Made by a program: the position numbers and the translations under genes. A stretch of 43,794 bases of DNA from IMG/VR virus record IMGVR_UViG_2734482574_000013; one strand, 5' to 3'. Below are positions 6,671 through 43,500 of this stretch, piece after piece (the first letter of the stretch is position 1; each line of letters opens with the position of its first letter). This DNA is from a virus. Taxonomy: Duplodnaviria; Heunggongvirae; Uroviricota; Caudoviricetes. The notes below the pieces were generated by a model. The model saw nothing but the letters and a program-made list of their open reading frames with translations. It searched no databases and was not told where the DNA came from.

Positions 6671-7159
6671 ATGTTGGATGTATTTACTCCATTGTTGAAA
6701 CTTTTTGCTAACGAGCCACTCGAAATACTTATGTATACGATTATCATTTTTGGTCTCACTCTCTGGCTGATACCGAAAGAGTTTACTGTCGCATTCAATG
6801 CTTATACTGAAATACCTTGGCTCTTTCAGATTATCGTTTTTGCCTTTTCTTTCGTGGTCGCCATTTCCTTCTCAAGATTGCGAGCACATATTCAAAAGCA
6901 TTATTCATTACTACCAGAGCAACGAGTATTGCTTCGTTTATCTGAGAAAGAAATCGCTGTATTTAAAGATTTCCTTAAAACAGGAAATCTTATTATCACT
7001 TCTCCTTGCCGTAACCCGGTTATGAAAAAATTAGAACGGAAGGGCATCATTCAACATCAGAGTGATAGCGCAAACTGTTCTTATTATCTCGTCACCGAAA
7101 AATACTCCCATTTTATGAAGTTATTCTGGAACAGCAGGAGTAGACGTTTTAATCGTTAG
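6671..7159 (+). CDS. sieB: Superinfection exclusion protein B (162 aa, starts MLDVFTPLL)
   Basis: Hydrophobic N-terminal membrane segments; matches recalled SieB; the track ORF from 6548 is an N-terminal extension. Confidence 0.82.
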   Translation: MLDVFTPLLKLFANEPLEILMYTIIIFGLTLWLIPKEFTVAFNAYTEIPWLFQIIVFAFSFVVAISFSRLRAHIQKHYSLLPEQRVLLRLSEKEIAVFKDFLKTGNLIITSPCRNPVMKKLERKGIIQHQSDSANCSYYLVTEKYSHFMKLFWNSRSRRFNR

Positions 7160-7311
7160 CTTACTGTGTGCTTCTCCAACCATCGGCGCGCACCAGTTTC
7201 GGTTTTAAATGTTTTGCTTTTGGTATACGTCATGGCAGTGAACGTTCCATCCTGGTTGGGGAACACGCCGCACACCAGGGATTCGTTGTTGCCGAGGTCG
7301 ATTTTTTGCAT
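7156..7311 (-). CDS. ydaF: YdaF-like small protein (51 aa, MQKIDLGNNESLV...)
   Basis: Below the ORF-track cutoff; read from the minus strand; convergent with and overlapping the sieB stop. Confidence 0.65.
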   Translation of the reverse strand: MQKIDLGNNESLVCGVFPNQDGTFTAMTYTKSKTFKTETGARRWLEKHTVS

Positions 7312-7321
7312 TTTGCGAATC

Positions 7322-7456
7322 TCACATCTTGTTGCTGTGTATAGCGACTTCTGCCTGCCAGAGATCCCAGTCGTTGCTGCGTAAAGCCTGCACAGCCTGG
7401 TTGTAAGTGATACCGCAACAATCCATCAAATACTGAACTACTTCGTAATGCACCAT
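7322..7456 (-). CDS. ydaG: YdaG-like small protein (44 aa, starts MVHYEVV)
   Basis: Strong RBS GGGGAGAG before the ATG at 7456; the track ORF 7322-7504 starts at an upstream GTG. Confidence 0.65.
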   Translation of the reverse strand: MVHYEVVQYLMDCCGITYNQAVQALRSNDWDLWQAEVAIHSNKM

Positions 7457-7599
7457 CTTATCTCTCCCCTTAACGCCGGGTGGCGGAACTGAAACCTGCT
7501 GCACTGCAAAATCTGAACCCTGCCGTCATGTTCATACGCCTCGGGCTGGCTACTTAACCCCTGACCACTGCCTGGTAACTCGAAGTATTGCCCTGCGTT

Positions 7600-7700
7600 C
7601 TGTGGGGCGGGGTGGGTTGGTAGGTATATAATGTACTTTGTGTTCATTGATGTAAAGTACTATAAGTACATTTTGTGTGTAAAAAAATGAGATGGGATAA
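7600..7700 (-). promoter_or_regulatory. Putative early-left promoter/operator region with repeated ATGTACT-type motifs
   Basis: ATGTACT at 7631-7637, palindromic AGTACT at 7656-7661 and inverted AGTACAT at 7666-7672; on the minus strand a TTACAT ... TATATA promoter-like pair overlaps them, directed toward ydaG. Confidence 0.4.
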
Positions 7701-7746
7701 AGTGAAGCACAAACCCGGAGGGGGACGCTACCGGATTTATGCTGGT

Positions 7747-8184
7747 TTAAGAGGCTTTTTGTTTTTTCTTTCGTGCTAGCTCTTCGTAAATTGCATTGTA
7801 CTTCTGTTTTTTCTCCTCAAGAGTTTTTAAAAGTTCATCTGTCTCACTGTCAGGGAGCTCGTCCAGAAGGTCAATGATGATTTTTTGTCTTGGATTTAAC
7901 TCCTGATAGAAACGTACCTGTCCACTTTCTTCTGTATCCTCTCCCAAAAGATAGGTTGGTGTTGTTCCAATGAGTGTTGCTAATTCCCTTAATTTCTCTC
8001 GGCGAGGAATTGTTTCGCCATTAAACCATTTGCTAACCGCTTTTGGTGTTAATTTCATTCGACGGGCAATTTCTGCCTGCCTTCCATGTTGTTCATAACC
8101 AGCGTTTTCACAGGCTAGCGCAAGCCTACTGGCGAACTCTTTACGCGCTTTATCTTCATGAACCATAAGTTCAATGATATTCAC
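7747..8184 (-). CDS. racR: Prophage repressor RacR, XRE-family HTH (145 aa from GTG at 8184)
   Basis: HTH segment (QAEIARRMKLTPKAVSKWFNG); divergent from ydaS-ydaT; no obvious SD, so the start (GTG 8184 or ATG 8166) is uncertain and the mRNA may be leaderless. Confidence 0.82.
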   Translation of the reverse strand: MNIIELMVHEDKARKEFASRLALACENAGYEQHGRQAEIARRMKLTPKAVSKWFNGETIPRREKLRELATLIGTTPTYLLGEDTEESGQVRFYQELNPRQKIIIDLLDELPDSETDELLKTLEEKKQKYNAIYEELARKKKQKAS

Positions 8185-8245
8185 TCTTGAATGTACTGTC
8201 AGTTCTGTTATAGCATGTACTCAAAGTTCACATTGTGAGGGTGAT
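8185..8245. promoter_or_regulatory. racR / ydaS divergent control region with two direct ATGTACT motifs
   Basis: ATGTACT at 8191-8197 and 8215-8221, 24 bp apart, between the divergent starts of racR (8184) and ydaS (8246). Confidence 0.45.
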
Positions 8246-8500
8246 ATGAACCAGAAAACACTTGAAGATGTAATCAAAACTGTTCGCGTTTCTGTTGTGG
8301 CCGACGTTTGTGGTGTCAGCCAAAGAGCAATCTACAAATGGATGGATAACGGAAAATTGCCTCGCACAGAATATACCGGCGAAACAAATTACGCTGAAAA
8401 AATCGCTCATGCATCAAACGGATTATTTTCTGCTGATGTAATTTTAACTATTGGCAGAAATAAAACTACTACGAAAAAGCTGATGGGAGTTGATTCATGA
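8246..8500 (+). CDS. ydaS: Cro-like HTH protein YdaS (84 aa from MNQKTLED)
   Basis: RBS GAGGGTGA before the ATG at 8246; HTH segment VADVCGVSQRAIYKWMDNG; divergent from the repressor; track ORF starts further upstream at 8174. Confidence 0.78.
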   Translation: MNQKTLEDVIKTVRVSVVADVCGVSQRAIYKWMDNGKLPRTEYTGETNYAEKIAHASNGLFSADVILTIGRNKTTTKKLMGVDS

Positions 8501-8919
8501 AAATCAAGCATGAGCACATCGAGTCAGTGTTGTTAGCCCTGGCAGCCGAAAAAGGGCAGGCATGGGTAGCCAATGCCATTACTGAAGAATATCTGCGCCA
8601 GGGGGGCGGCGAATTGCCCCTGGTACCAGGCAAGGACTGGAATAATCAGCAGAATATCTATCACCGTTGGTTGAAAGGTGAAACGAAAACGCAAAGAGAA
8701 AAAATTCAGAAGCTGATCCCAGCAATTCTGGCAATCCTTCCGCGCGAGCTGCGTCACCGACTCTGCATCTTCGATACCCTGGAACGCCGTGCATTACTGG
8801 CGGCGCAGGAAGCGTTAAGTACGGCAATTGATGCGCATGATGATGCAGTCCAAGCCGTTTACCGGAAAGCGCATTTCAGCGGCGGCGGGTCTTCCGACGA
8901 TTCTGTCATTGTTCATTAA
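8497..8919 (+). CDS. ydaT: YdaT, CII-like / toxic protein (140 aa)
   Basis: 140-aa ORF overlapping the ydaS stop by 4 nt; length and sequence match recalled YdaT. Confidence 0.82.
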   Translation: MKIKHEHIESVLLALAAEKGQAWVANAITEEYLRQGGGELPLVPGKDWNNQQNIYHRWLKGETKTQREKIQKLIPAILAILPRELRHRLCIFDTLERRALLAAQEALSTAIDAHDDAVQAVYRKAHFSGGGSSDDSVIVH

Positions 8920-9795: not shown

Positions 9796-10230
9796 ATGAA
9801 AAATATTGCGACAGGCGACGTTCTTGAACGTATCCGCAGACTGGCCCCGTCACATGTAACCGCGCCATTCAAGACGGTAGCGGAGTGGCGCGAGTGGCAA
9901 CTTTCCGAAGGCCAGAAACGTTGTGAGGAGATCAACCGTCAGAATCGTCAGTTGCGGGTGGAAAAAATTCTGAATCGCTCTGGCATCCAGCCATTGCACC
10001 GCAAATGCTCGTTTTCGAATTACCAGGTGCAGAACGAAGCGCAGCGATACGCGTTGAGTCAGGCGAAATCCATCGCTGATGAACTGATGACCGGGTGTAC
10101 AAATTTTGCGTTCAGCGGAAAACCTGGTACCGGGAAGAACCACTTAGCGGCAGCTATCGGGAATCGCCTGCTGAAAGACGGTCAGACAGTGATTGTGGTT
10201 ACCGTGGCTGATGTTATGAGTGCCCTGCAC
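9796..10230 (+). CDS. ydaV: YdaV, DnaC/IstB-like AAA+ helicase loader, 5' part only (3' end lost in N-run)
   Basis: Walker A motif GKPGTGKNHLAAAIG; the ORF runs directly into the N-run at 10231. Confidence 0.8.
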
Positions 10231-10569
10231 NNNNNNNNNNNNNNNNNNNNNNNNNNNNNNNNNNNNNNNNNNNNNNNNNNNNNNNNNNNNNNNNNNNNNN
10301 NNNNNNNNNNNNNNNNNNNNNNNNNNNNNNNNNNNNNNNNNNNNNNNNNNNNNNNNNNNNNNNNNNNNNNNNNNNNNNNNNNNNNNNNNNNNNNNNNNNN
10401 NNNNNNNNNNNNNNNNNNNNNNNNNNNNNNNNNNNNNNNNNNNNNNNNNNNNNNNNNNNNNNNNNNNNNNNNNNNNNNNNNNNNNNNNNNNNNNNNNNNN
10501 NNNNNNNNNNNNNNNNNNNNNNNNNNNNNNNNNNNNNNNNNNNNNNNNNNNNNNNNNNNNNNNNNNNNN
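10231..10569. other. Run of 339 N (masked or unsequenced); hides the ydaV 3' end
   Basis: Literal n characters in the sequence. Confidence 1.
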
Positions 10570-10593
10570 AATTTTTACCGGGAGGAAATTTTT

Positions 10594-11355
10594 ATGGAGA
10601 CTGTTTTTGACGCACTGAAAGCAATGGGAAAAGCCACATCCATAGAACTTGCTGCGCGACTTGATATCAGTCGTGAAGAAGTGCTGAACGAACTATGGGA
10701 ACTGAAAAAAGCTGGTTTCGTTGATAAAAGCGCGTACACCTGGCGTGTGGCTGATAACAACGTTCAGCAGGAACAGCCAATGCAGGCAGAACTGCCGGAA
10801 GAAACCACCACGGCAACTGTAGTGAAAATCTCAGAGTGCGATTTAACCGCGACGATTGAACAACGCGGACCACAAACGGCGGATGAACTGGCTACGCTGT
10901 TCGGTACAACATCCCGCAAAGTTGCTTCAACGCTGGCAATGGCAATCAGCAAAGGACGCCTGATTCGCGTAAACCAGAACAGTAAATTTCGTTACTGCAT
11001 GCCGGGCGATAATTTACCAGCAGAGCCGAAAGCTGCATCGGTAGCGGAAACTGATGGTAAAGCCTTTCCTCAGCCAGCCGGTGTTGCGTTACCAGTACAG
11101 GAAGCGGCAACACAGGAAGATATTAAAACAGAAACTGTGGCGGACATTGTGCAGTCGCTGCCATCGTTTACTGAAACGCAAGCGGATGACCTAGTTTTAC
11201 CATCGCTGCATATGGCAAACCGCGAACTGCGTCGGGCGAAAAATCATGTCCAGAAGTGGGAGCGAGTCTGCGCCGCGCTGCGGGAGCTGAACAAGCACCG
11301 GGATATTGTCCGACAGATTGTCGATTCCTCCAGTCGTATTGTGTCGGAAAAGTGA
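10594..11355 (+). CDS. ydaW: YdaW-like protein (253 aa, starts [12 protein letters not shown]), apparently intact
   Basis: RBS GGAGG 8 nt before the ATG at 10594; follows the replication genes; the ORF-track fusion with ydaV is an artefact of the N-run. Confidence 0.65.
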
Positions 11356-11370
11356 TTGCCGGAGGCGCTT

Positions 11371-11787
11371 ATGGCAAAAGTTTTTACACAGGAAGAGCGT
11401 GAAAAAATTAAGGAGCAGGTTGTTGAGTTGGTACGCCAGAGTGGGCGCGAGACGTTAAGGCAACTGGAGGCCAAGACAGGTGCGACAAGATATCTGATGA
11501 GCATTCTTGCCAGAGAGTTGGTTGCCAGTGGCGATGTATACAACTCTGGCTATGGGTTATTCCCGTCTGAACAGGCTCGTAAGGATTGGAAAAACGCCCG
11601 CAAAAAACTATCCAGGGCAAAGGTGAAAAAAACGGTTGTGGTTGATCCTGACCTTATCTGGTCATTACCAGACGGAGAAATACGCCGCTATGACAGGCGT
11701 CAGAACATAATCTGTCGCGAGTGCCGGAAGAGTGAAGTTATGAAACGTGTACTGGCATTTTATCAAGGAAATCTTCGGTATTTATAG
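11371..11787 (+). CDS. Hypothetical protein (138 aa, MAKVFTQEEREK...), basic with a C-terminal CRECRK motif
   Basis: RBS GGAGG 6 nt before the ATG at 11371; the track ORF starts at an upstream TTG. Confidence 0.55.
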   Translation: MAKVFTQEEREKIKEQVVELVRQSGRETLRQLEAKTGATRYLMSILARELVASGDVYNSGYGLFPSEQARKDWKNARKKLSRAKVKKTVVVDPDLIWSLPDGEIRRYDRRQNIICRECRKSEVMKRVLAFYQGNLRYL

Positions 11788-11985
11788 ACGTTACTAGATC
11801 AAAGAGCATTAGTTCATATGTAAATTGACATTTTTCTGGCACAGGGGAGAGCTAGCGTGGTTGTCCGCTTTGTGCCAATAGCGGACATTGCTGGCTCATG
11901 GTATGTTAGTTTAAGGAGGCAGGTTATGCCCTGTATTTCGCTGTGGTATAATAGTTGCGCAATTGATACAAGGGAGCGTTACATC

Positions 11986-12948
11986 GTGAAAATTGTTTTC
12001 GAGGTTAATGGAAAGAAAGTTCCACTAAAATCTTTAAAATACATAAGCAAAAAAGATCAACTCGAAGTAATGAAAAACTGGTTCTTTGAAAACTTTGAAG
12101 ATCCGGCAAATGCTTGTCCGTATGAAAGTAGAGAAGGTGGCTATGCTTACATATATGGCGGGCCGTATGATGCGAGCGAAGAACTACAATCCATCTTCGG
12201 TCAATATGTTAAATCTGAGTATATTGAGGAATTAGTAGATGAATTACAAACACAATGTTTTGACTGGTCTGGAAACTCAAATAATATAGATGATTGGTAC
12301 GATGATGATATCTACGACGCTGTAACGTCTTCCGGTAATCCGTATTTAAAATTCATTGATAATATCGATAAAATAAAAAAACTTGCAAAAGATAAAACTG
12401 AACAACAGCAAAAAAACCACTTGCTTAGTTTGCTCTACACGAATGTTATTACAGCTTTGGAAACGCTTTATGTTGAGCTATTCATTAATTCTATAGAGAA
12501 AGATGATGTCTACATAGCCAATTGTATAGAAAAAGGTAAGACTGAATTTAAAGTAAGCAAAGATATTGCTGCGTTGCCTTTCAAGGGTGAACCCATCGAG
12601 AAAATTAGGGGAGAGCTAATCAGGTCAATCAAGGAACACTTGATCAGTGCAAGCTGGCATAGCACTAAAAAGGTAATCGACCGCTATGAAGCTACATTCG
12701 ATATAAAAGTACAAAAAGACTGTCCGATAGAAGCTATTGAATTGGCAACCCTCAATCGAAATCACTTAGTGCATCGTGGTGGAAAGGATAAAGAAGGGAA
12801 CCTCGTAGTGATTACAGACCAGGATCTTGAAACGCTGATTGAAAATGCATCGAACCTGGCAATTATGCTCTACAACAGTTTAAATGTAGCAACGAATAAA
12901 ACCACCATTTTGCAACCAGATGACAAACCGTTCATTCATGAATTTTAA
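11986..12948 (+). CDS. Uncharacterized protein with a C-terminal HEPN-like RNxxxH motif (320 aa from GTG; alternative ATG at 11926 with AGGAGG RBS)
   Basis: AT-rich coding sequence; RBS AAGGGAG before the GTG at 11986; extended -10 TGgTATAAT at 11944-11952; motif RNHLVH encoded at 12757-12774. Confidence 0.6.
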   Translation: MKIVFEVNGKKVPLKSLKYISKKDQLEVMKNWFFENFEDPANACPYESREGGYAYIYGGPYDASEELQSIFGQYVKSEYIEELVDELQTQCFDWSGNSNNIDDWYDDDIYDAVTSSGNPYLKFIDNIDKIKKLAKDKTEQQQKNHLLSLLYTNVITALETLYVELFINSIEKDDVYIANCIEKGKTEFKVSKDIAALPFKGEPIEKIRGELIRSIKEHLISASWHSTKKVIDRYEATFDIKVQKDCPIEAIELATLNRNHLVHRGGKDKEGNLVVITDQDLETLIENASNLAIMLYNSLNVATNKTTILQPDDKPFIHEF

Positions 12949-12963
12949 TAGCGCAGGTCATAC

Positions 12964-13965
12964 ATGGATATTCGCACACGAAAGACAAAATTTTTAGAGT
13001 CGTTAGATTCAACTGAAGTGATACGCAAAGCAGTAAGTCTCGCTATAGATTGCATTATTGATAATCATAATAGTAATGAAGATACCCCCTTAGTTATTAC
13101 CAGCTATGATGATCTCTGTAGAATCCAGGTGCTAAATTATGTACAGGAGTTTTGCGAAGCTGCATTCCCTGATATGGATGAATATTACTTTAGTCCTAAC
13201 ATACTTCGCATCAACGGCAAGACTAGTGAAGAAGCTTGTATTAACTTAATTAAACTCTTAAGAAGTACAAAAGGCATGCTATTCTGGTCCGATGCCCCAT
13301 CGTGGTTCGCTAGCCTCCCCGACGGATTATTCCATGTTGTTAACATTGATCAAAAAATCGTTACTCGCGGCCTTAATAAGAAAAACTCTAAGCCGACAAT
13401 AATCAATAAAGATTACAGTGTAGATACACTACTATCAGAGCTATTTTTGAATGGCGCACACATGGAGCAACCCAACGTACACAACGTTTCTGAGGGAAAC
13501 ATGAAGTTCTATGATGAATGCCATGCTGGATTAATCAGACCAATACCCGCTCCAATAGGCGCGTCATACGATGAAGAGATCACAATTAATTCTCCAGATT
13601 GGCAAAAGCTCGCGTGTGTAGCTTTACGCCGCTATCAGTCGAAGGAATGTCATGACGGAATGCAATGGGATACAACCGATCATGGTTGGACTGATGTAAT
13701 CGCGTATCCATTCGTCGAAGAAATACAATCAATGGATAATAGTGGTTATCGACAATGTTTAGTTGGGCTGGTCACAATAAACAATTCAAATGCAAATTCT
13801 CCGTACCTATCTACCGTTTGGATACATCCATTTTATCGCAGGAGAGGGTTATTAAGTAAGTTATGGCCAAAATTACAAGAGTTATATGGAAGTAACTTCG
13901 AAATTGAGCGACCTAATGAAAATATGAAAGCATTTCTGAAAAGTGCGAAACACGCAGATTACTAA
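12964..13965 (+). CDS. Uncharacterized protein with a GNAT-like acetyltransferase-type C-terminus (333 aa)
   Basis: Starts 15 nt after the upstream gene stop (operon-like); AT-rich; C-terminal segment LVGLVTIN...VWIHPFYRRRGLLSKLW resembles the GNAT acetyl-CoA-binding motif. Confidence 0.55.
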   Translation: MDIRTRKTKFLESLDSTEVIRKAVSLAIDCIIDNHNSNEDTPLVITSYDDLCRIQVLNYVQEFCEAAFPDMDEYYFSPNILRINGKTSEEACINLIKLLRSTKGMLFWSDAPSWFASLPDGLFHVVNIDQKIVTRGLNKKNSKPTIINKDYSVDTLLSELFLNGAHMEQPNVHNVSEGNMKFYDECHAGLIRPIPAPIGASYDEEITINSPDWQKLACVALRRYQSKECHDGMQWDTTDHGWTDVIAYPFVEEIQSMDNSGYRQCLVGLVTINNSNANSPYLSTVWIHPFYRRRGLLSKLWPKLQELYGSNFEIERPNENMKAFLKSAKHADY

Positions 13966-14151
13966 TTTATGAATCAGTCTGTGGAGTTAGGGTTGGTGTG
14001 AACAAGTAGGGTAAGAGCCTCAACGTGATGCTATGCCGACCTGCTCCCTGAGAATTCACACAGAAGGCTGCTAGCAATGTCTGCAGATCGCTCAAAGCGG
14101 ACTAAAATGTTGGCTTGTTTCTGACTTAGAGCATTTAAGGAAGTGCTGGTG

Positions 14152-14367
14152 GTGACTGGTTGTTGTGTTCCATTTCTACAGAATAAAATCACAGAAACTA
14201 TACCCAATAGTTGTATTGAATCACTGACGAGACAGCCTCATATTTATCAGGACTGGTGTGCGTCTAATACAGGGGGTTGTCGTGCTGGTTCTCAAATGTG
14301 CGCTGGCTATTGCGGCTGTAATGGCAATTTATTGTCTTGCTGTTGTTCTTATGGAGCGGCTTTCTGA
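14152..14367 (+). CDS. Cysteine-rich small ORF (about 72 aa, 11 Cys; ends ...CAGYCGCNGNLLSCCCSYGAAF), speculative
   Basis: SD AAGGAA at 14137-14142 with GTG starts at 14149 and 14152; no ATG start; unusual Cys density. Confidence 0.3.
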   Translation: MTGCCVPFLQNKITETIPNSCIESLTRQPHIYQDWCASNTGGCRAGSQMCAGYCGCNGNLLSCCCSYGAAF

Positions 14368-14585
14368 TTGATTACATACTGGCTAGAAAAAAGGTGTTAC
14401 CTTGGTTTATCTTTGTCCGGCAAGGTGCGCTCATTAATCTTAAGTAAATTTATTGCTCAAGTATTCAGATTACTTCTTATGGTTGAAGTCTCCTGTCAAT
14501 GTAGAACCAATATATTTACAAAAATGAGACCCGTCGGGGATAGCCCTGCCGGGTCTGACTGTTAAAGCATTTTTAATATGATCAT

Positions 14586-14924
14586 CTATTTTTTGGTGCT
14601 ATAGACTTTTTCGCCCGAAAAGTCTGGAGCGACCCAAAAGTTAATATTAAACTGAGCATCATCGCTTAGTTCAACACGGTGCCAGTATTGTGGTGGGCTT
14701 GTTGCAAAAGCGCCAGCATTAATGACTACTTTTATCTCCGGTTCAGTAGCATTCTCATCAGTAAAACCATAATATGTTACAGTGCCTTCCATTACGCACA
14801 ACTGCCCAAAAACACCTGCTGCTGTATTATGATGTGTTAATAACGCTGAAGGTACGTTCTCTTTTGTGAAGAACGGAGTTGAGCGTTTGATTACCCAATC
14901 TTTAGGAATTCTCTTGTGTGTCAT
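14586..14924 (-). CDS. YeaR-like DUF1971 family protein (112 aa from MTHKRIPKDW)
   Basis: Strong RBS GGAGGAGG before the ATG at 14924; sequence (RSTPFF...CVMEGTVTYYGFTDENATEPE...FNINFWVAPDF) resembles recalled E. coli YeaR. Confidence 0.7.
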   Translation of the reverse strand: MTHKRIPKDWVIKRSTPFFTKENVPSALLTHHNTAAGVFGQLCVMEGTVTYYGFTDENATEPEIKVVINAGAFATSPPQYWHRVELSDDAQFNINFWVAPDFSGEKVYSTKK

Positions 14925-15737
14925 AACCACCTCCTCCAAAACATGCATTAAAAATGCATCTTTTGGAGGGTTATGTCAAGCTGTTATGAAACACATAATT
15001 GATATGTTGATTAGAGGAGAAGATAGAATAAATATGGTTGTTTTTCGTATAACTATTTGTTTTACTTTTAGTTTATGCATTCTGTGTGTTAGGAATAAGT
15101 TATTAAAGTTTAATCAAAAAATCTCGATGTAGTCCACATAGATTACTGTTACTGAACCTTATTGTGTGTATTAGTTGTGTTCTGAAATTTCAGCTTAATT
15201 ATTTATGATGTATTTTTTAACGATAAATATTTTCCCAGGATACCTTTACTGTGTATATAAATAAATTATATACGCATAAATAATGTAAAGGCGTCCTTTT
15301 AGATATATCTTATCAAATGTTAATGACTTGAGTGGGAAATATGATTCCAGCAACTTATCATGTGGCTACTTTATAAAAATAATGCCCATATAAAACAACA
15401 AGCGAAAAGGATTACGGATAAAAAAGGAGCGAGATGTGCGAACTTGTTATTTTCCATGTTTAACCACCTTAAATAATTGATGATGACGGGATGATTGCAT
15501 CTGTAATGCTTTTATTGAAATGTTATGATAAAAAAGAACTTTTGCATAACATTAAAATGTAATTTATCTAATCGTTTTTAATAATAAGTGTCGTATTTCT
15601 ATCCTTGTACCAGCTATTTGATATGTAGTGTTTGTTCATGCTATGTGGGGCTTTACACCATAGCCAGTTTATTTATACTTTATTCGTCAGCCTGAACAAC
15701 TGGCATCTGCTGCGCTGCGCCATCGAGAGATTGAGAA

Positions 15738-16337
15738 ATGGCGCATATACAACTGGTCAAACAAACCTCTTCTGGTTTACTTCTCCCGGCGACGCCGGAG
15801 AGTTGCGATTTTCTGCATCAAATCAAAATAGGTGAGTGGATACACGCAGACTTTAAGCGTGTGCGTAACTACGCATTCCACAAGCGTTTTTTCAAACTCC
15901 TGCAACTGGGATTCGATTACTGGACTCCGGTCGGTGGGGCGATCACGCCTCGCGAACGAGAACTGCTGTCTGGTTTCGTTGATTACCTGTGCGAATCAGT
16001 TGGTCGGGAACACACGCCAGCCCTGAGTGATGCCGCAGAGCAATACCTTAACACCGTTGCGACTCGTAGAACCCGGGATACGGCGTTGCTAAAGTCGTTT
16101 GAGGCTTTCCGCGAGTGGGTAACCATTCAGGCCGGATTTTACACCGAGCATATTTATCCGGACGGTAGCCGTGGGCGTCGGGCAAAATCCATCGCTTTTG
16201 CGAATATGGACGAAGTCGAGTTTCAGCAGGTTTATAAATCTGTACTGAATGTGCTGTGGAACTGGATTCTGTTCCGTAAATTCTCCTCTCAGGAGGAAGT
16301 TGAAAATGTGGCCGCACAACTACTGGAGTTTGCGTAA
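15738..16337 (+). CDS. Nin-region protein, DUF1367-like (199 aa)
   Basis: Position upstream of Q in a nin-like block; family assignment is from memory. Confidence 0.6.
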   Translation: MAHIQLVKQTSSGLLLPATPESCDFLHQIKIGEWIHADFKRVRNYAFHKRFFKLLQLGFDYWTPVGGAITPRERELLSGFVDYLCESVGREHTPALSDAAEQYLNTVATRRTRDTALLKSFEAFREWVTIQAGFYTEHIYPDGSRGRRAKSIAFANMDEVEFQQVYKSVLNVLWNWILFRKFSSQEEVENVAAQLLEFA

Positions 16338-19652: not shown

Positions 19653-20143
19653 TGCCTCCATCATTACGAAAAGTCGTTGCTGCTGCTATTGGTGGCGGAG
19701 CAATTGCTATAGCATCAGTGTTAATCACTGGCCCAAGTGGTAACGATGGTCTGGAAGGTGTCAGCTACATACCATACAAAGATATTGTTGGTGTATGGAC
19801 TGTATGTCACGGGCATACAGGAAAAGNNNNNNNNNNNNNNNNNNNNNNNNNNNNNNNNNNNNNNNNNNNNNNNNNNNNNNNNNNNNNNNNNNNNNNNNNN
19901 NNNNNNNNNNNNNNNNNNNNNNNNNNNNNNNNNNNNNNNNNNNNNNNNNNNNNNNNNNNNNNNNNNNNNNNNNNNNNNNNNNNNNNNNNNNNNNNNNNNN
20001 NNNNNNNNNNNNNNNNNNNNNNNNNNNNNNNNNNNNNNNNNNNNNNNNNNNNNNNNNNNNNNNNNNNNNNNNNNNNGCAATGGAAAGGTCTCATGACTCG
20101 TCGTGAGATTGAGCGTGAAATCTGTTTGTGGGGTCAGCAATGA
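19652..20143 (+). CDS. SAR (signal-arrest-release) endolysin, phage-21 R-like; central part hidden by N-run
   Basis: N-terminal SAR segment [27 protein letters not shown]; start overlaps the holin stop; C-terminus [21 protein letters not shown]. Confidence 0.85.
19827..20076. other. Run of 250 N inside the endolysin gene
   Basis: Literal n characters. Confidence 1.
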
Positions 20144-40589: not shown

Positions 40590-43500
40590 ATGGGTAAAGG
40601 CAGCAGTAAGGGGCATACCCCGCGCGAAGCGAAGGACAACCTGAAGTCCACGCAGCTGCTGAGTGTGATCGATGCCATCAGTGAAGGGCCGGTTGAAGGT
40701 CCGGTNNNNNNNNNNNNNNNNNNNNNNNNNNNNNNNNNNNNNNNNNNNNNNNNNNNNNNNNNNNNNNNNNNNNNNNNNNNNNNNNNNNNNNNNNNNNNNN
40801 NNNNNNNNNNNNNNNNNNNNNNNNNNNNNNNNNNNNNNNNNNNNNNNNNNNNNNNNNNNNNNNNNNNNNNNNNNNNNNNNNNNNNNNNNNNNNNNNNNNN
40901 NNNNNNNNNNNNNNNNNNNNNNNNNNNNNNNNNNNNNNNNNNNNNNNNNNNNNNNNNNNNNNNNNNNNNNNNNNNNNNNNNNNNNNNNNNNNNNNNNNNN
41001 NNNNNNNGGAAAAAGACATCACCATTAAGGGCAAAACCACCTCGCAGTATCTGGTCTCGGTGGTGGTGNNNNNNNNNNNNNNNNNNNNNNNNNNNNNNNN
41101 NNNNNNNNNNNNNNNNNNNNNNNNNNNNNNNNNNNNNNNNNNNNNNNNNNNNNNNNNNNNNNNNNNNNNNNNNNNNNNNNNNNNNNNNNNNNNNNNNNNN
41201 NNNNNNNNNNNNNNNNNNNNNNNNNNNNNNNNNNNNNNNNNNNNNNNNNNNNNNNNNNNNNNNNNNNNNNNNNNNNNNNNNNNNNNNNNNNNNNNNNNNN
41301 NNNNNNNNNNNNNNNNNNATACAGCGGTATCTGGGACGGAACGTTAAAACCAGCATACAGCAACAACATGGCCTGGTGTCTGTGGGATATGCTGACCCAC
41401 CCGCGCTACGGCATGGGGAAACGTCTTGGTGCGGCGGATGTGGACAAATGGGCGCTGTATGTCATCGGCCAGTACTGCGACCAGTCAGTGCCGGACGGCT
41501 TTGGCGGCACGGAGCCGCGCATCACCTGTAATGCGTACCTGACCACACAGCGCAAGGCGTGGGATGTGCTCAGTGATTTCTGCTCGGCGATGCGCTGTAT
41601 GCCGGTATGGAACGGGCAGACGCTGACGTTCGTGCAGGACCGACCGTCGGATAAGGTGTGGACCTATAACCGCAGTAATGTGGTGATGCCGGATGATGGC
41701 GCGCCGTTCCGCTACAGCTTCAGCGCCCTGAAAGACCGCCATAATGCCGTTGAGGTGAACTGGATTGACCCGGATAACGGCTGGGAGACGGCGACAGAGC
41801 TTGTGGAGGATACGCAGGCCATTGCCCGTTACGGTCGTAACGTCACGAAGATGGATGCTTTTGGCTGTACCAGCCGGGGGCAGGCACACCGCGCCGGGCT
41901 GTGGCTGATTAAAACAGAACTGCTGGAAACGCAGACCGTGGACTTCAGCGTGGGCGCAGAAGGGCTTCGCCATGTGCCGGGCGATGTCATTGAAATCTGT
42001 GATGATGACTATGCGGGTATCAGCATCGGCGGGCGCGTGCTGGCGGTAAACAGCCAGACCCGGACGCTGACGCTCGACCGTGAAATCACGCTGCCATCCT
42101 CCGGTACCATGCTGATAAGCCTGGTTGACGGAAGTGGCAATCCGGTCAGCGTGGAGGTTCAGTCCGTCACCGACGGCGTGAAGGTGAAAGTGAGCCGTGT
42201 TCCTGACGGCGTTGCTGAATACAGCGTGTGGGGGCTGAAGCTGCCGACGTTGCGCCAGCGCCTGTTCCGCTGTGTGAGTATCCGTGAGAACGATGACGGC
42301 ACGTATGCCATCACTGCCGTGCAGCATGTACCGGAAAAAGAAGCCATCGTGGATAACGGGGCGCACTTTGACGGCGACCAGAGCGGCACGGTGAATGGTG
42401 TCACGCCGCCAGCGGTGCAGCACCTGACTGCCGAAGTCACCGCAGACAGCGGGGAATATCAGGTGCTGGCGCGCTGGGACACGCCGAAGGTGGTGAAGGG
42501 CGTGAGCTTCCTGCTCCGTCTGACCGTAACAGCGGATGACGGCAGTGAGCGGCTGGTCAGCACGGCCCGGACGACGGAAACCACTTACCGCTTCACACAA
42601 CTGGCGCTGGGGAACTACAGGCTGACAGTCCGGGCAGTAAATGCGTGGGGGCAGCAGGGCGATCCGGCGTCGGTATCGTTCCGGATTGCCGCACCGGCAG
42701 CGCTGTCGCGGATTGAGCTGACGCCGGGCTATTTTCAGATAACCGCCACGCCGCATCTTGCGGTTTATGATCCGACGGTACAGTTTGAGTTCTGGTTCTC
42801 GGAAAAGCGGATTGCGGATATCAGGCAGGTTGAAACCACAGCACGCTATCTTGGCACGGCGCTGTACTGGATAGCCGCCAGTATCAATATCAAACCGGGC
42901 CATGATTATTACTTTTATATCCGCAGTGTGAACACCGTTGGCAAATCGGCATTCGTGGAGGCTGTTGGTCAGCCGAGTGATGATGCATCCGGTTATCTGG
43001 ATTTTTTCAAAGGCGAGATAGGGAAAACCCATCTGGCTCAGGAGCTGTGGACGCAGATTGATAACGGTCAGCTTGCGCCTGACCTGGCTGAAATCAGGAC
43101 GTCCATTACGGATGTCAGCAATGAAATCACGCAGACCGTCAATAAGAAACTGGAAGACCAGAGTGCGGCAATTCAGCAGATACAGAAGGTTCAGGTTGAT
43201 ACAAATAATAACCTGAACAGCATGTGGGCTGTGAAGCTGCAGCAGATGCAGGACGGACGCCTTTATATCGCGGGTATTGGTGCCGGTATTGAGAACACCC
43301 CTGACGGCATGCAGAGTCAGGTGCTGCTGGCGGCGGACAGGATTGCGATGGTTAATCCTGCGAATGGCAACACAAAACCGATGTTTGTTGGTCAGGGCGA
43401 TCAGATATTCATGAACGACGTGTTCCTGAAACGCCTGACGGCCCCCACCATTACCAGCGGTGGAAATCCATCGGCATTTTCCCTGACTCCGGACGGAAAG

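Follow-up and report, generated by a model that had tools for sequence, protein, structure and literature searches.

An AT-rich gene pair with predicted HEPN and GNAT folds in a Rac-like lambdoid prophage is the published defence system DS-33

Introduction

What does a pair of AT-rich genes do in the middle of a lambdoid prophage, and has the pair been described before? The question is posed by a 43,794-nt stretch of DNA from a virus of the Caudoviricetes (IMG/VR record IMGVR_UViG_2734482574_000013), the whole of which is referred to here as the window. Two co-directional genes, A and B, lie there 15 nt apart on the + strand (Table 1). A first-pass annotation, made from the sequence alone, had read A as a protein with a HEPN RNase motif and B as a GNAT-like protein, and had put the two forward as an undescribed defence or toxin module. 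The idea of a defence module was well founded, as phage protection by the same two genes is published under the name DS-33 (DeWeirdt et al., "DefensePredictor", Science 2026; PMC13092281). The idea that the system was undescribed was not. How the two proteins divide the work, and whether they need each other, is considered below.

Table 1. Features of the cassette, in window coordinates.
Feature	Position	Strand	Basis or remark
Extended -10 element TGgTATAAT, no good -35 (putative promoter)	11944..11952	+	Read in sequence
Shine-Dalgarno sequence AAGGGAG	11970..11976	+	Read in sequence; 9 nt upstream of the GTG of A
Gene A (DS-33A), 320 aa: PF18870 N-domain and RiboL-PSP-type HEPN domain	11986..12948	+	ORF
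N-terminal domain of A, ~aa 1-135: HEPN/RES N-terminal domain 1 (PF18870)	11986..12390	+	Pfam; family alignment
HEPN domain of A, ~aa 140-308	12403..12909	+	Predicted HEPN fold
HEPN motif R258-N-H-L-V-H263-R264 (RNHLVH at 12757-12774)	12757..12777	+	Sequence; alignment
A-B intergenic spacer	12949..12963	+	15 nt; read in sequence
Gene B (DS-33B), 333 aa: family-specific N-domain and GNAT-fold C-domain	12964..13965	+	ORF; WP_000354966.1
N-terminal alpha/beta domain of B, ~aa 1-195	12964..13548	+	Relatives only within its own family
GNAT-fold domain of B, ~aa 196-333	13549..13962	+	Predicted fold
Partial acetyl-CoA loop of B, R292-R-R-G295-L-L	13837-13854	+	Sequence; alignment

The Cassette and Its Setting

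The cassette differs from its surroundings in composition, as the first reading had noted. Its GC fraction is 0.378 (0.361 for A and 0.391 for B), compared with 0.465 for the whole window and ~0.49 for both the replication and the nin/Q-type module on either side, and it ranks in the lowest 2% among 1980-nt windows. The placement between these two modules is confirmed by an identical locus in E. coli FORC_081, which is annotated as a Rac-like prophage. Upstream lie, in order, recET, kilR, sieB, repressors, ydaT/U and the replication genes (DnaC-like, DUF1627 and DUF977), followed by two "hypothetical proteins"; downstream lie DUF1971, the nin/Q-type genes (DUF1367, DUF1364 and DUF1133), lysis genes and trkG. 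APEC O1 also carries this cassette after DUF977, but in a different, DicB-type lambdoid prophage. Among the phages of INPHARED the cassette is absent, and only ~90 nt of its upstream flank are shared. An Rfam scan of positions 11000-16000 matched zero RNA families and so gives no evidence for an RNA antitoxin.

The extended -10 element reported at first reading is present, and it is kept as TGnTAnAAT in the copies from E. coli, Serratia, Enterobacter and Aeromonas. The Aeromonas copy is homologous from window position 11927 onwards, and its sequence farther upstream is unrelated. A consensus scan for -35/-10 promoters and terminators stayed at background level and picked up neither this element nor a terminator after B. 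The Shine-Dalgarno sequence of A has counterparts in the Aeromonas and Serratia copies (AAGGAG/AATGGAG). The cassette is a moron with its own putative promoter in a Rac-like lambdoid prophage, at an accessory hotspot.

Three starts can be considered for A, as the longest ORF opens at 11857, an ATG occurs at 11926 and a GTG at 11986. In the Aeromonas copy a TGA closes the frame upstream of the GTG, which supports the GTG start and the promoter, and the 320-aa GTG product is also the call made by PGAP and the choice made for the published clone. Judged by this comparison of copies, the conserved unit is the GTG start with its promoter and not the ATG at 11926. The latter, which has a strong AAGGAGG and would give the 340-aa product seen in PHROG 17908 and cluster P0001, was rejected because the Aeromonas copy has a stop codon in frame at that point and no such Shine-Dalgarno sequence.

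Identity with DS-33

In the work of DeWeirdt et al., the pair was cloned and validated as a defence system. Table S6 of that paper lists the clone under the working name "GNAT", marks it "defensive TRUE" and gives it the final name DS-33 (PMC13092281). The clone (NZ_QOWT01000046.1, 6922-8901) encodes WP_014639476.1 and WP_000354965.1, with A at 6922-7884 and B at 7900-8901, such that genes, order and 15-nt gap are those of the window. Protein A of the window is identical to WP_014639476.1 and to the A sequence of Table S8 (320/320 residues), whereas B matches at 332/333, the sole difference being P289L (P289 in the window, L289 in the clone). The cassette is DS-33 and is already known. The first-pass annotation was to be given up if the pair matched a characterised system, and the two proteins do so. 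In its main text the paper only counts DS-33 among four systems with HEPN domains, and it reports only a remote HHblits link to PD-T4-2 / PD-T4-5 / PD-T7-3 / ApeA (PMC13092281).

The functional data are found in Table S7 of the same paper, as -log10 efficiency of plating (EOP) in two replicates for T7, T3, Bas67, Bas26 and T5. The wild-type operon gave values of 3.8/2.6 for T7, 3.3/2.4 for T3, 4/2.0 for Bas67, 5/5.9 for Bas26 and 0.8/0.1 for T5, and thus cut plating of the first four by 2 to 6 logs. With the HEPN gene deleted, values fell to about 0 for T7, T3 and Bas67, 0.5/0.3 for Bas26 and 0.5/0.1 for T5. Substitution of the motif arginine, an experiment that had been suggested from the sequence, has the same outcome, as R258A reached at most 0.8 on all five phages in both replicates. 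Deletion of the GNAT gene left 4.8/4.3 for T7, 3.3/3.3 for T3, 4/3.3 for Bas67, 5/4.9 for Bas26 and 1.7/0.5 for T5 (all PMC13092281). From the two deletions it follows that the HEPN protein is necessary, and is sufficient without B, for the phages tested. Since loss of the GNAT gene does not harm defence while loss of the HEPN gene or of R258 abolishes it, the earlier picture of an obligate HEPN and GNAT pair is unsupported; both families, moreover, occur mostly alone. These measurements apply to the published clone, with which the window shares an identical A and a B that differs at residue 289.

Among complete E. coli genomes, the A sequence and the B sequence each occur in 209 of 5426 (~4%). 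Nearly all of these copies are at least 99% identical, and A is full length in 205 genomes. As a discovery, then, the locus adds little, the operon being a validated defence system. A modest residual interest attaches to the consensus allele of B and to the N-terminal domain of A, as a module common to HEPN, PIN and RES proteins.

Protein A and Its Family

The HEPN assignment made at first reading stands. R258, H263 and R264 of the motif are invariant in 52 A homologues with identities down to 26%, as are W224, H225 and E159. The C-terminal domain is predicted to adopt the all-alpha HEPN fold, it carries the Rx4-6H motif, and HepT toxins (8xdj, 5yep and 7ae2) are among its best structural matches. 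At the level of profiles, PF18735 (RiboL-PSP HEPN) is matched by 26 of the 52 homologues (best E 7e-11), with no match for the window's own A at E up to 1.

Conservation within the family peaks in the N-terminal domain, where the motif reads WFxxNFEDP...PYESREGGYxYIYGGPY and includes W32, E38-D39-P40 and G58-G59-P60; its WF..NFEDP and GGY...GGPY portions are invariant across the family. PF18870 is matched by 49/52 family members. The window's A aligns to it over aa 26-92 (E 1.9e-4) with 22.2 bits, below the gathering cut-off of 27.4 bits. Among the loci fetched, the same domain also occurs fused to PIN_8/PIN_12 and to an uncharacterised C-terminal domain. Outside E. coli, members of the A family occur in many phyla and stand alone; across 80 loci no conserved neighbour was found, and B adjoins only the closest copies.

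A published parallel in architecture is aRES, a group of defence proteins of E. coli, Klebsiella and Enterobacter that carry a RES domain and are encoded alone (Osterman et al., bioRxiv 2026, 10.64898/2026.01.28.702374). These proteins deplete NAD+ on infection, cause growth arrest and are found in defence islands, and the rule for their detection uses PF18870. The A family is likewise single-chain and stand-alone, with a PF18870 domain followed by a toxic effector. The effector of aRES is a RES NAD+ phosphorylase, whereas that of A is a predicted HEPN RNase domain, and no RES domain was matched in A. As its effector is HEPN and not RES, A is not a member of aRES, and no NAD+ chemistry is expected of it. 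The A family at large is partnerless, as aRES are; the clade to which the window's A belongs has a (dispensable) B downstream. DS-33A can be grouped with a wide range of stand-alone immune proteins in which a PF18870 N-domain is joined to one of several exchangeable effectors (HEPN, PIN or RES), and judged by these fusions the N-domain is a candidate common sensor or regulator of them. The aRES preprint itself gives the PF18870 domain no function.

Other HEPN defence proteins are less similar. PD-T4-2, PD-T4-5, DARNA (PD-T7-3), ApeA and HepS likewise have a HEPN domain of the RiboL-PSP/Abi type, but none has a PF18870 N-domain. In DARNA the order of domains is different, with HEPN at the N-terminus and a Pds5-like C-domain. 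At E values up to 1, none of the PADLOC models of these systems matched A, and those for PD-T4-2, PD-T4-5, PD-T7-3 and ApeA did not match B either. PADLOC and NCBIfam scans at large gave no meaningful match for the two proteins, and a PHROGs scan of both matched only families of unknown function.

Proposed Mode of Action

Very probably, DS-33 is a moron in which A alone confers protection, through its PF18870 N-domain and HEPN RNase domain, with B as an accessory. A constant N-domain joined to interchangeable toxic C-domains in partnerless genes is the signature of a single-chain sensor-effector, from which we infer that A would be auto-inhibited in uninfected cells. The shuffling of domains further suggests that the N-domain may sense, directly or indirectly, a cue from the phage, which would free the HEPN site, probably in a dimer, and the freed site would then cut cellular RNA. 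By analogy with other HEPN defences, the substrate would most likely be tRNA or mRNA; DARNA, HepS and ApeA cleave tRNA anticodon loops. Cutting of RNA would stop translation, and the infection would be aborted. B would be a co-transcribed GNAT-fold accessory that is not required for defence, acting either as a mild brake on A or as an independent conflict gene. The Pfam scores of the window's own A, which lie under the curated cut-offs, speak against this picture.

Protein B and Its Family

The N-terminal domain of B has no detectable relatives outside its own family. Searched as a profile against 1.84 billion representative proteins, it retrieved only 23, and the full-length hits among them (~330-346 aa) all have the same architecture. 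This domain has no sequence match in the PDB and no match in Pfam. The predicted structure of the whole protein (pLDDT 90.6) agrees with the GNAT fold proposed at first reading for the C-terminal part, and its best structural matches are the protein lysine acetyltransferases ATAT, ESCO1, HAT1 and MYST. The window's B scores 19.9 bits against Pfam Acetyltransf_1, under the gathering score of 20.7 bits, and the same profile matches 35/45 homologues at E up to 1 (best 6e-6).

The acetyl-CoA-binding loop is only partly canonical. The GNAT-like segment of B, VWIHPFYRRRGLLSKLW, is present at 13816-13866. Measured against the canonical pyrophosphate-binding loop, taken as R/Q-x-x-G-x-G/A, R292 is found in 45/45 sequences and G295 in 37/45, but the final position is L, M, I or F and never G or A. 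N318 is present in 44/45.

Residue 289 deserves separate mention. All family members compared (44/44) have P here, as do all 39 full-length copies of the E. coli type that could be read by exact match, and the window's B carries this consensus residue. The position falls in the beta4-alpha3 region, which binds acetyl-CoA in GNATs. The published functional test of B used an allele (L289) that is mutated at this otherwise invariant residue, a caveat that is absent from the paper.

Linkage and Natural Disruption

A and B are linked only in one enterobacterial/Aeromonas clade. Every B at ~73% identity or more has A upstream, and in all paired loci the gap measures 15-18 nt, down to A at 83% and B at 78% identity. 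The two genes diverge in parallel (A 97%/B 93%; A 92%/B 84%; A 83%/B 78%), and both are under purifying selection, with dN/dS of 0.12-0.21 for A and 0.19-0.46 for B. On an Aeromonas mobilisable element the pair is accompanied by a SIR2 gene. Beyond the clade the linkage ends on both sides: A homologues of 63-76% identity, like all those more distant, have no B, and no B homologue of 62% identity or less adjoins A. The first-pass annotation had asked whether homologues co-occur in defence islands. Solo copies of B do occur there, but the A-B linkage itself is limited to this one clade.

The settings of solo B are diverse. For instance, copies lie next to a PrrC-like AAA_13 gene (the PADLOC candidate PDC-S06), a HerA gene or an Abi_2/PD-T4-5-like HEPN gene. 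Another is found next to Mrr_cat and HEPN_Toprim_N, after a TerB/BrxCD-like/helicase trio and with SIR2 and SoFic nearby. Further copies occur in a Mu-like phage, at a tail-fibre moron site and in an ICE. Their ORFs are intact, with dN/dS of 0.25-0.5, similar to that of paired copies.

In a B clade at ~86-91% identity, A has been lost in three independent ways, with B intact each time. Internal deletions correspond to window positions 11920-12906 in Mangrovibacter and 11963-12886 in Enterobacter, both of which retain the upstream region of the cassette, while a 5' truncation in Citrobacter/Enterobacter leaves the last 64 codons of A. B therefore has an evolutionary life of its own, being solo in defence islands and retained after the loss of A. 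Insertion sequences have also disrupted the cassette. In AHB12, A is truncated by IS1 with B intact; in MB56, two copies of ISSen4 bracket A. In E. coli SF-173, IS1 lies within B while A is intact, and the strain is viable.

Possible Roles of B

Comparison with toxin-antitoxin systems sets the bounds for what B might do. HepT-MntA (type VII) is similar in that a HEPN RNase gene lies beside an enzyme that could modify it. There the MNT antitoxin is essential, and MntA AMPylates HepT. The partner in DS-33 differs, being a GNAT-fold protein and not an MNT nucleotidyltransferase, lying downstream, and being dispensable for both viability and defence. An essential-antitoxin role for B is excluded, and the reading as an obligate toxin-antitoxin system was downgraded, because B knock-outs, namely the published deletion and SF-173, are viable. 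The GNAT toxins AtaT, TacT, ItaT and KacT share only the fold with B. In the type II systems AtaT and TacT, a toxin of ~170 aa is accompanied by an adjacent small DNA-binding antitoxin. B, at 333 aa, is twice as long, has a unique N-domain and no small antitoxin gene beside it, resembles protein lysine acetyltransferases more closely in structure, and is tolerated alone. That B is a toxin of this kind, acetylating aminoacyl-tRNA with A as its partner, draws on the fold and general precedent; it is already contradicted and highly improbable.

Three roles remain for B: it may restrain A mildly, serve as a conflict gene in its own right, or be a passenger. A passenger is disfavoured by operon structure, co-divergence, purifying selection, the persistence of B where A has been lost, and its solo occurrence in defence islands. 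A looser version of the toxin-antitoxin idea, with MntA and HepT as its model, would have B acetylate or bind the HEPN toxin and hold it off until infection relieves the inhibition. Such an arrangement would suit the 15-nt operon with its single promoter, the parallel divergence (A 83-100% and B 78-100% identity) and the structural likeness of B to protein lysine acetyltransferases. The repeated loss of A with B kept, together with the IS1 truncation in AHB12, shows the imbalance that a costly toxin would be expected to produce. Deletion of B, moreover, left defence equal or up to 1.7 log stronger in 9/10 comparisons, and the published allele, with P289L, may have been weak already (PMC13092281). 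Against this, the GNAT-deletion strain is viable and defends, and SF-173 is viable with a disrupted B and an intact A; A at 63-76% identity and beyond does without B, and B at 62% or below is never beside A. Table S9 of the same paper also gives no A-B interface score. On balance, regulation of this kind is unlikely. The gain in defence after removal of B is small and mostly positive, which fits a brake but could also be an effect on expression.

That B is instead an independent conflict gene (for defence with a different phage range, counter-defence or exclusion) travelling with A in a two-gene mini defence island is a better prospect, though still a tentative one. It accords with the solo copies beside known or candidate defence genes and in mobile elements, their intact ORFs under selection, the upstream region retained after deletion of A, and a published DefensePredictor log-odds for B that is weakly positive at 1.08 (PMC13092281). 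It is opposed by the HEPN-deletion construct, which still carried B (as the P289L allele) and gave no protection against five phages, by the failure of any PADLOC defence family to match B, and by an acetyl-CoA loop that is only partly canonical. A related and somewhat more doubtful proposition is that consensus (P289) B is a protein acetyltransferase that either tunes the HEPN effector or acts as a stand-alone immune or counter-immune gene, and that its published dispensability is partly an artefact of P289L and of the five phages used. If the former were true, a HEPN immune RNase would be restrained by acetylation, a kind of brake not seen before; the latter would give such a role to a gene of a family found only in gammaproteobacterial mobile elements. 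Against the view that A acts alone stand the tight 15-nt operon and the co-divergence of the two genes across more than 40 loci, neither of which would be expected were B functionally unrelated to A.

The Tested B Allele

Proline occupies position 289 of the GNAT-fold protein B in the window copy and in 44/44 members of the family, and the residue adjoins the acetyl-CoA loop. In contrast, B in the clone of DS-33 that was tested, the published defence system with the same two proteins, has leucine at this position (L289; DeWeirdt et al., Science 2026, PMC13092281). The published conclusion that the GNAT protein is dispensable thus comes from a mutated allele, altered at an invariant residue.

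The PF18870 Domain and the Genes Next to B

Conservation across the whole family of the HEPN protein A peaks in one stretch of its PF18870 N-domain, residues 41–60, in which P45, G58, G59, and P60 are invariant. The same residues are the lowest-confidence part of the A model (block pLDDT 57–63). Top conservation combined with the poorest model confidence hints that the domain may adopt a conformation dependent on a ligand, a partner, or oligomerization. In the alphaproteobacterial loci L060–L082, many proteins join the PF18870 N-domain to a C-terminal domain of ~170 aa that bears a GIGHNxPP motif and has no Pfam match; this is possibly a further effector type of the PF18870 class.

Distant homologues of B are followed, 3–50 nt downstream, by variable co-directional genes. 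Their products are a 754-aa AAA_13/PDC-S06 PrrC-like protein in L159 and L160, a 273-aa protein with no family match, seen twice, in L091 and L161, and a 148-aa YunG-like protein in L089. Such variety could reflect the pairing of B with different effectors, or it could be no more than defence-island crowding.

Gene Loss, Insertion Sequences, and Flanking Regions

Gene A has been deleted or truncated three independent times, with B intact in each case, and two of these losses are internal deletions that join the cassette promoter region directly to B. In E. coli MB56, one copy of ISSen4 lies in the A promoter region and a second in the first codons of B, such that the pair encloses the HEPN gene alone in a unit resembling a composite transposon.

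An inverted repeat directly 5′ of the cassette promoter is kept in E. coli, Serratia, and Enterobacter copies and partly in Mangrovibacter copies, also where gene A has been lost, and is missing from the Aeromonas copy. It could serve as an operator, or it could end transcription of the upstream module.

Coordinates of features in the window and in homologous loci (L-numbers)
Feature	Location	Coordinates	Strand	Detail
Codon 289 of B	window	13828–13830	+	encodes P289
A residues 41–60	window	12106–12165	+	PYESREGGYxYIYGGPY
Inverted repeat	window	11871–11894		GTCCGC-N12-GCGGAC
AT-rich accessory stretch, 3′ of cassette	window	14586–14948	−	
		15001–15500		
N runs (masked)	window	10231–10569, 19827–20076, 40706–41007, 41069–41318		
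Gene A deletion/truncation	L092	4885–4990		
	L093	4817–4930		
	L095	4752–4982		
ISSen4 pair around gene A	L099 (MB56)	1719–5081		
Genes 3′ of distant B	L159	2387–3667		
	L160	6049–8310		
	L091	5021–5839		
	L161	3199–4017		
	L089	4999–5442		

Downstream of the cassette, a further AT-rich accessory stretch holds a DUF1971/TehB-like gene on the minus strand, whereas the equivalent site in APEC O1 carries hokD; the hotspot therefore carries several independent morons. Apparent GC dips at four positions in the window, as well as the X-runs in the DnaC-like ORF (9796–11355), are due to masked sequence. Finally, proteins 100% identical to A and B of E. coli are encoded on a 3.3-kb contig (L003, JAIHTM010000277.1) of a “Collinsella sp.” MAG; although binned as this actinobacterium, the contig is in all likelihood a piece of an E. 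coli prophage that was placed in the wrong bin.
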